This document shows positions 1-3,000 of a stretch of 23,630 nucleotides of DNA, piece after piece. The stretch's first letter is position 1. Each line of letters starts with the position of its first letter. The stretch lies in IMG/VR virus record IMGVR_UViG_2563366867_000003; one strand, 5' to 3'. The DNA comes from a virus. Lineage: Duplodnaviria > Heunggongvirae > Uroviricota > Caudoviricetes. Made by a program: the position numbers.

Positions 1-3000
1 AGTGCGCGATTTCTGGCGCAGGCAGATTGATAAAAGGGCCGCTGAGAGAATCAGCGCCAGTCAGTCAGCCGGAAGCAAACCCGAAGATCCGCTCATTCCG
101 TAGTCACTTTCTTGACAACACCTTTCAACGAGAAAATCCCATGTCAGAAATCACATCCCTGGTCACTGCTGAGGCAGTGAAGGAAGTCCTGCGCTCTGAA
201 GAAGTCCGGAGTGCACTGAAACAGAAACTCCGCCAGAACCTTGAGGCGCGTCTTGATGCAGAAGTGGATGCCATTCTGGATGAGCTGCTGGGCGTACCAG
301 CGGTTCCGGAGCCGGAAGGTATCGCGGGTGACGGGAGTGCTTCAGATGGCGGTGAACCCACACCTGACAGCGACATGATGATGTAAGCCTGCGCAAGGGA
401 CCATCGGTGTGTGCCGGTGGTCTTTATATTGTTGTGAGCTTCCGGATAACGGGAGACGGGGTATGTACCAGATGGAAAAAATCACAACAGGTGTGTCATA
501 CACCACGTCAGCGGTGGGAACGGGCTACTGGTTCCTGCAGTTGCTGGACAGGGTTTCCCCGTCTCAGTGGGCGGCAATAGGCGTGCTGGGGAGTCTGCTG
601 TTTGGGCTGCTGACATATCTGACTAACCTGTATTTCAAAATCAGAGAGGACCGGCGTAAGGCGGCGCGGGGAGAGTAAAGCGATGAAGAAAAAATACGAA
701 CTGGTTGTTAAAGGGATAAATAATTACCCGGATAAGATTACTGTTACTGTGGCACTGGAAGTTGGTGGGTATCCGTCACTGTTGTTGCCAGATGTGGCGA
801 TTAGTCTTGACCGTACTGAAGGTGCCACGCTGGAGTTTTACGAAGCTGAGGCGAAAAAGCAGGCGAAGCAGTTTTTCATGGATGTTGCTGCCGGGTTATG
901 TGAAGGGAACGAACCGTTGCCGGAAAAGCGCCCCGTGATTTTAGAGGCGCAGAATGTATGGATAACCTACAAAGGAAATCTACCGGGAAGAATTACTGGT
1001 TCTCTGAAGACTCCACCGGAATCACAACCTTAATTCACTGACCGGAACAGATAAACCTGTCCGTGGGCAGAAACCGATAAATCCTGATAAATATCCATGA
1101 ACGCAAAAATCAGATACGGCCTGTCGGCTGCCGTTCTGGCGCTGATTGCCGCTGGTGCGCCTGCGCCTGACATTCTCGACCAGTTTCTGGATGAAAAGGA
1201 AGGTAACCACACCACGGCATACCGTGATGGTGCGGGGATCTGGACCATCTGCCGTGGTGCCATCATGGTGGATGGTAAACCTGTTGTTCCAGGCATGAAG
1301 TTGTCGAAGGCAAAATGCGACCGGGTTAACGCCATTGAGCGTGATAAGGCGCTGGCATGGGTGGAGAAAAACATCAGAGTGCCACTGACCGAACCCCAGA
1401 AAGCGGGGATCGCGTCATTCTGTCCGTACAACATTGGTCCCGGTAAGTGTTTCCCGTCGACGTTTTACAGACGAATTAATGCAGGTGATCGAAAAGGTGC
1501 CTGCGAAGCGATTCGCTGGTGGATTAAGGACGGTGGCAGAGACTGCCGTATTCGTTCAAACAACTGTTACGGTCAGGTATCCCGTCGCGACCAGGAGAGT
1601 GCGCTGGCGTGCTGGGGAATTGACAGATAAGCAGAATATTTTGCTGAAAAATGCGGTTTGCTCACACGGACGGATAACACGAAATCCTGCGAACTGACAA
1701 AAACTAAGTGAATAAAAGTAAAAACCCCGTTTGTTGGCTGCAAGCGGGGTTTTGTGTTTCCTGACTCTGGAAAAGTCAAAGGAGAAAGTGTGTTTGATTT
1801 TAGCAAACTGATTCGGGAGATTCGAGTGATGGCTGAAAAATTATCCACCTGGAAGTTCATTCTTATCTGGCTGGTGTTTGTGATTATGGCCTCCGGTTAT
1901 TTCATCGGTCAGATACGCTGGTGGTGAAATGAACCGCGTACTGTGCGTGGTCATCATTGCCCTGCTGGTGGCCTGTGGTGCGCTTAGTCTGGGGCTGAAT
2001 CATTACCGTGATAACGCCATAACCTACAAAGCCCAGCGCGACAAAAATGTCAGAGAACTGAAGCTGGCGAACGCGGCAATTACTGACATGCAGATGCGTC
2101 AGCGTGATGTTGCTGCGCTCGATGCAAAATACTCGAGGGAATTAGCCGATGCGAGAGCTGAAAATGAAACTCTTCGCGCTGACGTTGCCGCTGGTCGTAA
2201 GCGCCTGCGTATCAACGCCACCTGTCCAGGTCCCGTGCGTGAAGCCACCGGCACCGCCCGCGTGGATAATGCAACCGGCCCCCAACTGGCAGACACCGCT
2301 GAACGGGATTATTTCATCCTCAGAGAACGGCTGATGACAATGCAGAAGCAGCTGGAAGGGGCGCAGGAATATATCCGCACTCAGTGCACTAAGCTGGCTT
2401 TTTATTATCCGGAGGATACATGAAGAAATTACGGGTAACCGTAGAACCTTTTCAGGGAACAATTCCGTTCCGTATTTTGCAGCGTGGTCGTGTTCTTGTT
2501 GAAGGTTCGTTCAGTGGTAAATGTACGCAATTACACTCCCGGACCTTTCAGGTGAATGCCACGAATGAAGAGCTAACCGTGGAGTGTACGATGAATGCCG
2601 CTAAATGCCGCTAAATGCCGCATGGTATCCGCTGCATTACAGCCAGTGTGTTGAGCGACCTTATTATCCATGCGCGGTATTGTCGCCGTATTCCTGCATT
2701 AACAGAGACCGCAGCCCGACAGGGAGACTCCTCTGCGCGAGTGTGCGGGGATAATCAAAAACGATACACACCGGGGTTTACCGCGTTAACGGAGCGCGGC
2801 GTTGTCCCCTCATAGTCGCCTGTCCGGTGCGATGGTGGAAGAAACCGAACGTTCATTTCTCGTTATTTGTCATGCTGGTCGGGCGCAGATGCGTTGCATC
2901 TGTTGCCAGCCTTCTCCTGCAGGCTTCAATAACCCACGCTGAAAAGTTACCGGACCCTTTATGCTCAAGGGCTATGTTGATTTGTTCAATTATGTGATTG

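Follow-up and report, generated by a model that had tools for sequence, protein, structure and literature searches.

A mobile cassette between the endolysin and Rz genes of a lambdoid phage: a conserved hairpin, a small membrane protein gene and a predicted antisense promoter in its first codons

What occupies the space between the endolysin and Rz genes of a lambdoid phage in which the two do not adjoin? In lambda, Qin, and phage vB_EcoM-606R7, R and Rz overlap by 4 nt, whereas in the DNA considered here 298 bp separate the end of the endolysin gene (1630) from the Rz start (1929); the original prediction for this DNA had put the gap, unlike lambda, at about 300 bp. The DNA (the window: the whole stretch of 23,630 nucleotides of the Caudoviricetes record IMGVR_UViG_2563366867_000003) holds at this place a cassette in which a terminator-shaped hairpin precedes a 45-codon gene for a small membrane protein, and the first codons of that gene appear to carry a promoter for an antisense RNA. 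Its parts, and the features predicted on it, are the following.

1714..1927, plus strand: the whole mobile cassette, that is, A run, hairpin, T run, spacer with a second small hairpin, Shine-Dalgarno (SD) sequence and 45-codon open reading frame (ORF).
1721..1753, no strand assigned: G+C-rich stem-loop with the shape of a terminator on both strands (pattern scan, folding, and covariation).
1762..1778, no strand assigned: second small hairpin, TGACT/AGTCA, abutting the SD sequence; in the antisense RNA it would form the 5′ stem-loop.
1778..1784, plus strand: SD sequence AAAGGAG of the GTG start (duplex with the 16S rRNA 3′ end, −8.7 kcal/mol).
1790..1927, plus strand: 45-codon small membrane protein gene (PHROG 6632; RefSeq WP_000459345.1 where annotated).
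1797..1825, minus strand: predicted leftward promoter in codons 3–12, with the extended −10 element TGCTAAAAT (1805→1797) and a weak −35 element, TCGAAT (1825→1820).
1713..1790, minus strand: predicted antisense RNA of ~75 nt, derived from the geometry of promoter and terminator.
1815..1831, plus strand: internal SD-like GGGAG (1815–1819) and in-frame ATG 1829 (Met14), which would open a 32-residue product (1829–1927).

An ORF of 45 codons within 300 bp is unremarkable by itself; it is conservation that makes this one remarkable. The frame opens with GTG (1790–1792) and closes with TGA (1925–1927), and a single A (1928) separates it from the ATG of Rz (1929), the one-base distance that had been noted before. 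GGAG (1781–1784) lies 5 nt from the GTG, and a GGAG-type site is kept in all of the diverged representatives (20 sequences below 93% identity). Translation would open with GTG in 17 of these 20 and with TTG or GCG in two others. The small ORF with GTG 1790 and the ribosome-binding site AAAGGAG is present as originally described, GTG being its conserved start. At E ≤ 0.001, 41 clusters at 50% identity were obtained. Protein and profile searches returned homologues from Escherichia albertii, E. fergusonii, Salmonella, Citrobacter, Trabulsiella, Edwardsiella, Yersinia, Izhakiella, Sodalis, Brenneria, Pantoea, Symbiopectobacterium, Serratia, an Azoarcus metagenome-assembled genome, Pseudomonas aeruginosa, Burkholderiaceae, Mycetohabitans, and Neisseria; the family thus ranges over Gamma- and Betaproteobacteria. 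When the window copy was compared with homologues from Salmonella, Yersinia, Edwardsiella, Pantoea, and other Enterobacterales, the ratio of nonsynonymous to synonymous substitution rates (dN/dS) was 0.08–0.3 at a dS of 0.5–2, the latter being saturated for the most distant pairs. The remaining five frames contain stops in the homologue comparison, and the frame itself stays intact out to Pseudomonas, Burkholderia, and Neisseria, a single copy having lost 9 nt in frame. Because dN/dS is low and the frame persists over saturated synonymous divergence, the 45-codon ORF is almost certainly a genuine gene under purifying selection. Loss of the frame among homologues had been named beforehand as evidence that would speak against the ORF; none was seen from E. 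coli to Neisseria.

The other explanation named beforehand, a mosaic joint with an accidental ORF and no gene at all, draws on the fact that the 298 bp are left blank in most RefSeq and GenBank records. With dN/dS far below 1 and a frame kept across two bacterial classes, it is scarcely credible, and the dN/dS values together with the codon comparison described below amount to its refutation. The 298 bp recur in many E. coli prophages at 95–100% identity; of 5,426 complete E. coli genomes, 940 contain the ORF region, and the cassette also occurs in H-19B, CP-1639, TL-2011c, many Stx1 and Stx2 phages, and Salmonella SPN3UB. It is thus common, also in well-studied phages, yet usually unannotated; the Prokaryotic Genome Annotation Pipeline calls the ORF at times (WP_000459345.1, hypothetical protein). 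A 95-codon ORF on the minus strand (1573–1860), annotated in CP-1639, was rejected as a candidate since the hairpin and spacer beneath it vary, and it can therefore not be conserved.

The product matches PHROG 6632, a family of unknown function, over its entire length (E = 6e-30; residues 1–45 on a 45-position profile). The family consensus is MxDFSKLIRELRxMxExLPxW[KR]F, followed by a hydrophobic stretch and often by GQIRWW at the end. An AlphaFold (AF2) model (predicted local distance difference test score, 82) consists of helix 4–17 and helix 20–44, the latter hydrophobic; by inspection, the first helix is amphipathic with a net positive charge and the second would be the membrane anchor of a single-pass protein, in keeping with the single-pass hydrophobic peptide first proposed. 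The C-terminus, GQIRWW, carries one charge and is not a charged tail of the holin type. With 45 residues and a hydrophobic helix, the product is a small (<60 amino acids) membrane protein, as type I toxins are. In Pfam, no significant match was obtained for the peptide, for the 44- and 43-residue ORFs of the 933W and PhiR12_5 type, or for a 60-residue ORF of PhiR12_5; in NCBIfam and PADLOC, none was obtained for the peptide, the 933W 44-residue ORF, the 60-residue ORF, or a 50-residue ORF of E. fergusonii, the Burkholderia cassette ORFs lying outside the scope of these three scans. The protein is not mentioned in the literature searched.

The hairpin ahead of the gene consists of the stem arms AAAACCCCGTTTGT...GCAAGCGGGGTTTT, followed by GTGTTTCC. 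A pattern scan classed it as terminator-like (14 pairs, including 6 G-C pairs, and a 5-nt loop), and the segment 1700–1800 folds with −29.5 kcal/mol (z = −4.1), which none of 200 shuffled sequences equaled. On the plus strand, the stem is followed by the tail TTTTGTGTTT, with a T run at 1750–1760. On its 5′ side lies an A run (1711–1724) that reads as a T run on the minus strand (tail TTTTTACTTTTATT) and therefore gives the element the shape of a terminator in that direction, too. In all but two of the homologues examined, a hairpin precedes the start codon by 28–38 nt (75 nt in one); it is absent from the truncated Serratia copy (L026) and weak in the distant lineage L200. The sequences of these hairpins differ widely (AAAACCCCG..., AAAGCCCCG..., AAAGGCCCAG..., AAAGCTCCG..., AAACGCCGTGATG...), and in every hairpin-bearing lineage they are flanked by the 5′ A run and the 3′ T run. 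Nevertheless, 96% of the cells pair, and compensatory (double) changes occur at 9 of 13 pairs. This degree of covariation was reached by none of 500 shuffles, and when the partners were slid against each other, only 32–57% of cells paired. The hairpin has thus very probably been selected as a structure, and it may work as a terminator in either direction. The hairpin reported originally at 1722–1757 was placed essentially right and its reading as terminator-type stands; what had escaped notice is that its shape is two-way and that it is not a separate element but part of the ORF's cassette. In Rfam, nothing in the whole window reached the gathering threshold; a minus-strand resemblance to the rimP leader was rejected because it is driven by the terminator (29.9 bits versus a cutoff of 47).

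The second, small hairpin has counterparts in homologues that differ in sequence (CCTTG/CAAGG, CGTTA/TAACG, CCTTCTG/CAGAAGG, and CTTA/TAAG). There, 77–82% of the cells pair and three to four of five pairs are doubly changed. Since MAFFT misregisters one group of sequences, the case for its conservation as a structure is moderate.

A covariance model of the leader, built from hairpin, spacer, SD sequence, and start, matches the window at 1714–1792 with 76 bits; the alignment derived from this model is biased toward the structure built into it. Homology between copies extends from the A run to the stop codon, whereas the flanks vary; in E. fergusonii, Yersinia, and other copies, no similarity is left to the left of the A run. 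Upstream, the neighbors comprise endolysins of several kinds (R21-type lysozyme, a 162-residue lysozyme, GH19, a 138-residue type, and a GH108-like type) as well as a baseplate spike, a tail fiber, and tail protein K; downstream, either Rz, a DUF2514 spanin, or baseplate genes follow, or there is no codirectional neighbor. Across these contexts, hairpin and ORF are one linked unit of ~215 bp. In a tally of 179 copies, which is dominated by E. coli, ~130 lie between an endolysin and an Rz-type spanin and ~25 between a baseplate spike and a baseplate gene. The latter arrangement was found in E. coli, Yersinia, and Pantoea; in Pseudomonas and Sodalis the cassette follows tail genes, and in Burkholderia, Mycetohabitans, and Neisseria it stands beside ParE, RelB/YafQ, HicB, or BrnT/BrnA genes, just before terminase. 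These contexts outside the lysis genes indicate a mobile, moron-like cassette and not a part specific to lysis.

They also bear on the lysis-dedicated role (antiholin, spanin partner) that had been suggested for the peptide. If it were a dedicated accessory of the lysis cassette (antiholin, holin modulator, or Rz/Rz1 partner), its position between R and Rz would be functional, and about three-quarters of the sampled copies indeed lie exactly between endolysin and i-spanin, 1–4 nt before the spanin start. A possible dual start would recall the holin/antiholin pairs S107/S105 and S21 71/68, and other small membrane ORFs occupy the R–Rz junction in 933W, Sakai Sp9 and Sp10, and PhiR12_5. However, the sample is biased toward E. 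coli, and the very same cassette is found next to baseplate, tail, and ParE/RelB/HicB/BrnT toxin–antitoxin genes. Moreover, the spanins next to it belong to two unrelated families and the endolysins to four, which makes a specific protein partner unlikely, and the C-terminus of the peptide, QIRWW, is unlike the tail of holins, which is typically hydrophilic and highly charged. A dedicated role in lysis is thus unlikely.

The leader model also finds cassettes in which the same leader precedes unrelated small membrane ORFs: one of 60 residues at the R–Rz junction of PhiR12_5; one of 50 residues in E. fergusonii that ends with WVKWW and lies directly 5′ of a family member; two of 58 and 51 residues in Burkholderia that end with AIRWW; and one of 35 residues in L126. 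Sequence inspection revealed further tandem units in Neisseria. The unrelated ORFs of PhiR12_5, E. fergusonii, and Burkholderia share an internal Met at residue 13–16, preceded by an SD-like sequence.

Several observations concern these and other small ORFs. Tandem hairpin-led cassettes lie next to the family member at L012 (2679–2907), L126 (2197–2420), L194 (3124–3379 and 4650–4884), and L203 (~1650–2052), and several of them end with (K/R)WW. The Burkholderia leader ORFs have only the C-terminal GxSYIVHAIRWW in common with the family (hhalign probability, 67%). In the Burkholderia prophage L194, a ~400-bp unit is repeated before each cassette (2029–2420, 2733–3124, and 4259–4650); with its palindrome GTAAAC-N6-GTTTAC, a promoter-like TTTACA-17-TATCAT, and an additional terminator-like hairpin, it has the appearance of a regulated promoter, joined to a leader terminator, ahead of each small ORF. 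In this repeated promoter-like unit upstream, the Burkholderia copies differ from the window.

At the R–Rz junctions of 933W and PhiR12_5, other inserts than that of the window are found. The window matches 933W until ~1725 and diverges from there. In 933W-type phages, a single-pass ORF of 43–49 residues (PHROG 4906, MISDKLITL...) lies directly 5′ of Rz, after ant (L004, 933W, 1921–2070; L005, PhiR12_5, 2085–2216; L186/L187, Sakai Sp10/Sp9, 1325–1473). A relationship between this 44- to 49-residue ORF of 933W and PhiR12_5 (MISDKLIT...) and the window peptide read from ATG 1829 (MAEKLST...) was considered and rejected: the profiles belong to different PHROGs (4906 and 6632), and their comparison by hhalign gave a probability of 0.6%. 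The R–Rz junction seems to gather small membrane protein genes.

The codons of the gene itself fall into two parts. Among the 20 representatives, codons 1–18 are nearly frozen at synonymous sites, whereas codons 22–43 are free: the mean proportion of synonymous differences (pS) is 0.38 in codons 2–18 versus 0.81 in codons 22–45. The ratio of nonsynonymous to synonymous differences (pN/pS) is about equal in both parts (0.35 and 0.30, respectively). In the free part, Val29, Gly36, and Gly40 are each encoded by four different codons and Arg43 by five. The following codons stand out in the frozen part, counted among the representatives that have the residue.

Asp3: GAT in 19 of 19.
Phe4: TTT in 16 of 16.
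Ser5: AGC in 19 of 19.
Glu10: GAG in 18 of 18.
Leu11: TTG in 13 of 13.
Arg12: CGA in 19 of 19.
Leu18: TTA in 17 of 20.

Read on the minus strand, codons 3–6 are TGCTAAAAT, TCGAAT lies 17 nt upstream of it, and the predicted start point (~1790) coincides with the start codon. The TG at −15/−14, T at −12, A at −11, and T at −7 are kept in 95 of 96 unique cassettes, the exception being the truncated Serratia copy. The −10 hexamers among the cassettes include TAAAAT, TAATAT, TAAGAT, and TAGAAT; more distant variants are TGCTAGAAT in Burkholderia and Mycetohabitans, TATAAT in Neisseria, and TGCTAATAT in L202. P. aeruginosa, with a G+C content of ~66%, disfavors the codons GAT and TTT; its copy retains GAT TTT AGC. 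Even the residues chosen at positions 4–6, [FIL]-[SI]-[KR], are those that preserve xTT-AxC-Axx. The unrelated leader ORFs of PhiR12_5, E. fergusonii, and Burkholderia have, on their minus strand, TATACT or TAGACT ending 7 nt from the start codon, that is, in the same register as the −10 element of the window. Taken together, the constraint at the nucleotide level was found to fit a predicted promoter in register with both gene and hairpin. A different minus-strand candidate from a simple scan, CTGACC-18-CATAAT (1912→1883), was discarded as it lies in the freely varying codons 32–41 and is not conserved. In the rightward direction, no promoter-like site was found in 1600–1790, and the conserved cassette starts at the hairpin.

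A second feature lies in the same frozen codons. Met14 (ATG 1829) is invariant in all 20 representatives and is preceded, at a distance of nine nt, by GGGAG (1815–1819). The duplex of this internal SD-like site with the 16S rRNA 3′ end amounts to −6 to −8.4 kcal/mol in all representatives and matches the first SD sequence in strength; codon 10 is GAG throughout and never GAA, and the site reads AAGGAG in Burkholderia and GAGGTG in Pseudomonas. GTG 1790 and ATG 1829 are thus both preceded by conserved SD-like sites. In the Serratia copy L026, only the short form is left, behind the stop codon of another gene, and 32-residue versions are called by several annotators. ATG 1829, which had been offered as an alternative start, is indeed in frame with an SD-like site of its own, but it is probably a second start yielding a 32-residue product, not a rival to GTG 1790. 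One viral contig (L111, ~2501–2629) has an in-frame 9-nt deletion of codons 11–13 and keeps the −10 element; the deletion puts the internal GGGAG beside ATG14, and the short form can therefore probably not be started there.

At the other end of the gene, its stop lies close to the next start in nearly all copies, a spacing that agrees with translational coupling. Its conserved end TGG TGG TGA offers Rz an SD-like GGTGA 3 nt before its ATG, and no hairpin lies between the 45-codon ORF and Rz. Coupling of the peptide stop to the Rz start, as had been suggested for the window, is thus plausible.

If transcribed, the leftward promoter would yield an RNA of ~72–80 nt that is complementary to start codon, SD sequence, and spacer and has the hairpin plus U run at its 3′ end (UUUUUACUUUUAUU for the window). 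Nearly all lineages have 38–47 nt between −10 element and stem, and the predicted RNA folds into a 5′ stem-loop and the terminator (−21.9 kcal/mol). Judged from these sequence features, the antisense RNA is probably made, albeit with a fair margin of doubt, and it would repress the GTG start. Because it covers the first start and not the second, it could also shift the output from the 45-residue to the 32-residue form.

Several points weigh against the antisense interpretation. In favor of it, the TGCTAAAAT site has the best promoter score in 1600–2000 and ranks fifth among 47,168 positions in the 23.6-kb window, but the matrix used for scoring was simple, ad hoc, and made for this analysis. 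The −35 hexamer is weak, matching at three of six positions. The distant lineage L200 has TGATAT, without the A at −11, and the weaker hairpin. The constraint on codons 9–14 is explained equally well by the internal SD-like site and ATG, and the promoter therefore rests mainly on codons 3–6. The G-U pairs of the hairpin slightly favor the RNA of the plus strand (10 versus 5 cells). As the internal start is left uncovered, the short form would not be fully silenced unless the duplex triggers mRNA decay. The list of Hfq-bound small RNAs (sRNAs) of E. coli O157 Sakai is empty here, but the three Sakai prophages checked (Sp9, Sp10, and Sp15) carry another R–Rz insert. Finally, a cassette without a rightward promoter is unlike classical type I toxin–antitoxin loci.

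Some of these points would be expected if the cassette were an ordinary moron with translation signals only, its hairpin being a terminator or an RNA-stabilizing stem and no antisense RNA being made. The frozen sites would then reflect the two starts with their SD sequences, together with an A/U-rich initiation region free of structure. GGGAG and ATG account for codons 9–14, A/U-rich codons after a weak GTG start can help initiation, and the poor −35 element and the G-U pairs agree with this explanation. However, it leaves unexplained why Ser5 is always AGC (or Ile ATC), given six Ser codons; why TG, T, A, and T survive at −15, −14, −12, −11, and −7 in 95 of 96 cassettes, also in G+C-rich hosts; why unrelated leader ORFs have a −10-like hexamer in the same register; and why the hairpin has its 5′ A run, and with it the shape of a leftward terminator, in all lineages. 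Translation signals without an antisense RNA are thus an unlikely explanation.

If the RNA is made, it could conversely be the cargo proper: a constitutive RNA of the lysogen that pairs with the late mRNA of an incoming, cassette-bearing relative and thereby excludes it, or that acts in trans on host messages via its anti-SD stretch. Promoter and terminator, as predicted, would make up a complete sRNA gene; STnc6030 of BTP1, an antisense RNA to late genes, excludes phages of its own type (PMC7067206); and E. coli O157 has prophage anti-sRNAs of comparable size (PMC4104026). On the other hand, the 3′ two-thirds of the ORF, which lie outside the RNA, are selected as protein (pN/pS 0.30 at pS 0.81), so the peptide matters, too; the spacer, which would be the body of the RNA, is poorly conserved, which fits pairing in cis and not a conserved seed acting in trans; and the anti-sRNAs AsxR and AgvB show no similarity. 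The RNA as the useful cargo of the cassette is therefore improbable. Among known RNAs considered as counterparts, AsxR and AgvB of O157 were dismissed for this lack of similarity, and EcOnc11 and EcOnc12 because they lie downstream of Rz, outside the R–Rz gap; Sakai Sp9, Sp10, and Sp15 have an ant-type insert. The IsrK/orf45/anrP locus of Gifsy-1 was considered because of the name orf45 and the ant gene of 933W; its orf45 is reported to be conserved in nucleotides and variable in protein, the opposite of the 3′ part of the ORF studied here, and the Rfam scan gave no match to IsrK.

How might the parts work together? Situated in a lambdoid late operon, with the endolysin gene on one side and Rz on the other, the cassette would meet stray rightward transcription in the lysogen with its hairpin, and any message leaking through would be silenced at the GTG start by the antisense RNA. 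During lytic growth, polymerase modified by Q would read through the hairpin, and heavy late transcription would overrun, occlude, or outnumber the small promoter and its RNA, so that the peptide is made and Rz is translated via coupling to the peptide stop codon. The peptide would be a membrane-active product kept silent until late, like a holin or a type I toxin. Such a late product, harmful if early, is favored because the gene appears doubly guarded, because layout and neighborhood resemble type I loci, and because a type I system, hokW-sokW of prophage Sp5, is reported to aid prophage-mediated lysis (PMC8621323). That the peptide is toxic or related to lysis is nevertheless an idea from analogy, tentative and rather to be doubted than assumed. 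The reading as a whole—a mobile cassette with a two-way terminator hairpin, a membrane peptide, and an antisense RNA from a promoter embedded in codons—is the one to which we incline, but only slightly. Of the earlier interpretation it keeps the gene, the hairpin, and a plausible coupling, and gives up the specificity for lysis; the leftward promoter in the first codons had been missed.

In layout, the cassette resembles most closely sar/ant and sas/sieB-esc of P22 and type I loci such as symE/symR; no sequence relation to named families, Rfam families, AsxR/AgvB, or IsrK was found. The sar promoter lies inside the 5′ end of ant and points in the opposite direction, its ~70-nt RNA covers the ant ribosome-binding site and ends at an intrinsic terminator in the upstream intergenic space, and strong convergent transcription is expected to silence the small promoter (PMC12197685). 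Promoter in the 5′ end of the target, RNA complementary to its ribosome-binding site, and upstream terminator are thus common to both, the RNA of the cassette being predicted; in contrast, the target of sar is an antirepressor and not a 45-residue membrane peptide in a late operon, and the sequences are not similar. The sieB/esc gene with its sas RNA (Ranade and Poteete, 1993, as cited in PMC7067206 and PMC12197685) has, as far as these citing papers convey, two in-frame starts that give a long and a short membrane-associated product, as predicted for the cassette, and sas acts on the upstream start and can shift the ratio of products, as the predicted RNA might. According to the same sources, SieB, with ~190 residues, is unlike the peptide in being an abortive-infection protein expressed in lysogens, and no homology was found.

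Type I loci (symE/symR, hok/sok, ibs/sib, ldr/rdl, and zorO/orzO) combine a small hydrophobic protein with a cis-antisense RNA over its start and, like the cassette, occur in tandem copies and on mobile elements (PMC8621323, PMC2887945). Should the cassette be a classical type I toxin–antitoxin system serving addiction or abortive infection, a stable toxin mRNA and a labile antisense RNA would be present in the lysogen, and the toxin would be freed by phage attack or loss of the element. The small hydrophobic protein with its predicted antisense RNA over the ribosome-binding site, the tandem cassettes reminiscent of ibs/sib and ldr/rdl (PMC2887945), and the position among type II toxin–antitoxin genes in Burkholderia, Mycetohabitans, and Neisseria are what such a system would lead one to expect. 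The conserved cassette, however, has no dedicated toxin promoter in the rightward direction and a terminator just 5′ of the ORF, and toxin mRNA would therefore be present in E. coli only during late transcription. Its protein has an amphipathic helix first and the anchor last, unlike most known type I toxins, and matches no known toxin family (PADLOC, Pfam, and NCBIfam). A classical type I system is accordingly quite unlikely.

With lambdoid morons (Juhala et al, 2000, as cited in PMC4104026), the cassette shares, to the extent that they are described there, the extra gene between conserved late genes, its tolerance (presumed for the cassette) through terminator read-through by Q-modified polymerase, and a site that varies by phage. 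Classical morons, by that account, have an upstream promoter and a downstream terminator and are expressed in the lysogen; the cassette differs in that its terminator lies upstream, it has no rightward promoter, and its sole promoter, a predicted one, points backwards.

Dual starts are a familiar motif of holins (S107/S105 in lambda, S71/S68 in phage 21), where they lie a few codons apart. Two in-frame starts, should both be used, in a small membrane protein would recall this motif, as would the place in a lysis cassette, which holds for the window and about three-quarters of the sampled copies, and RNA structure beside the SD sequence could set the ratio of products in holins and likewise here. 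Unlike holins, the cassette has its starts 13 codons apart and encodes one membrane helix and no charged C-terminal tail, and it also occurs outside lysis cassettes.

Taken further, these features could define an unrecognized class of cassettes, in which a small membrane protein gene, an antisense RNA, and a terminator hop together among the late operons of temperate phages of Gamma- and Betaproteobacteria. The first five codons would double as the −10 element of the antisense RNA, which would end at the shared hairpin; unrelated small membrane ORFs would share the leader, often in tandem, as RNA-gated late toxins with an isoform switch; and the peptides would act as lysis timers or abortive-infection effectors. 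This proposition, taken with all its parts, is a tentative one for which the doubts somewhat outweigh the support. Should the prediction for the window cassette hold, lambdoid lysis cassettes would contain an additional regulated membrane peptide whose translation is coupled to that of Rz, and lysis timing and the release of Shiga toxin could be affected. The cassette would then also be a compact case of the first codons of a protein being constrained to encode a promoter of the opposite strand, and of a hairpin-plus-spacer leader reused by several families of small membrane proteins.

The surroundings of the cassette are those of a lambdoid lysis cassette, which, according to ORF list and Pfam, makes up the start of the window with holin, a DUF1327/YdfR gene, endolysin, and Rz/Rz1.

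Ending at 678: holin gene of the phage-21 type, in the lysis cassette at the window start.
1097..1630, plus strand: endolysin gene of the R21/signal-arrest-release (SAR) type, the upstream neighbor (Pfam Phage_lysozyme, E = 5e-24; ORF list).
1631..1713, plus strand: 3′ flank of the endolysin gene, outside the cassette, common to 933W-type phages, in which the ant gene comes next.
1929..2423, plus strand: Rz (i-spanin; Pfam Phage_lysis, E = 2e-49; ORF list).
2149–2334: Rz1, embedded in Rz.

The 83 bp on the 3′ side of the endolysin stop (1631–1713) are shared with 933W-type phages whatever comes after them, and they are partly common to the Salmonella copy (GGATAACAnnAAATCC inverted repeat); to judge from these comparisons, they are a conserved 3′ flank of R21-type endolysin genes. 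The DUF1327/YdfR-family gene (683–1033) between holin and endolysin is a further gene that lambda lacks; Qin and several phages have it, too. Another terminator-like hairpin of the plus strand (396–425; 13 pairs, tail ATATTGTTGT) lies just 5′ of the holin gene and follows a 119-codon ORF (27–386); the region shows no similarity to the anti-sRNAs AsxR and AgvB, which hold such sites in O157 prophages. Near the other end of the window, a ~340-bp gap (20811–21148) separates genes resembling lambda I (20130–20810) and J (from 21149). It contains an element of A run, G+C-rich hairpin (~21008–21045), and T run that scores 23 bits with the cassette-leader model, and no convincing small membrane ORF follows this hairpin. 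Directly downstream of the lysis genes, a 64-codon ORF (2420–2622) overlaps the Rz stop, and its 3′ end is formed by three tandem copies of AAATGCCGCT (~2593–2622). Because its PHROG match covers only the middle of the profile (positions 100–162 of 291), it is probably the remnant of a gene.

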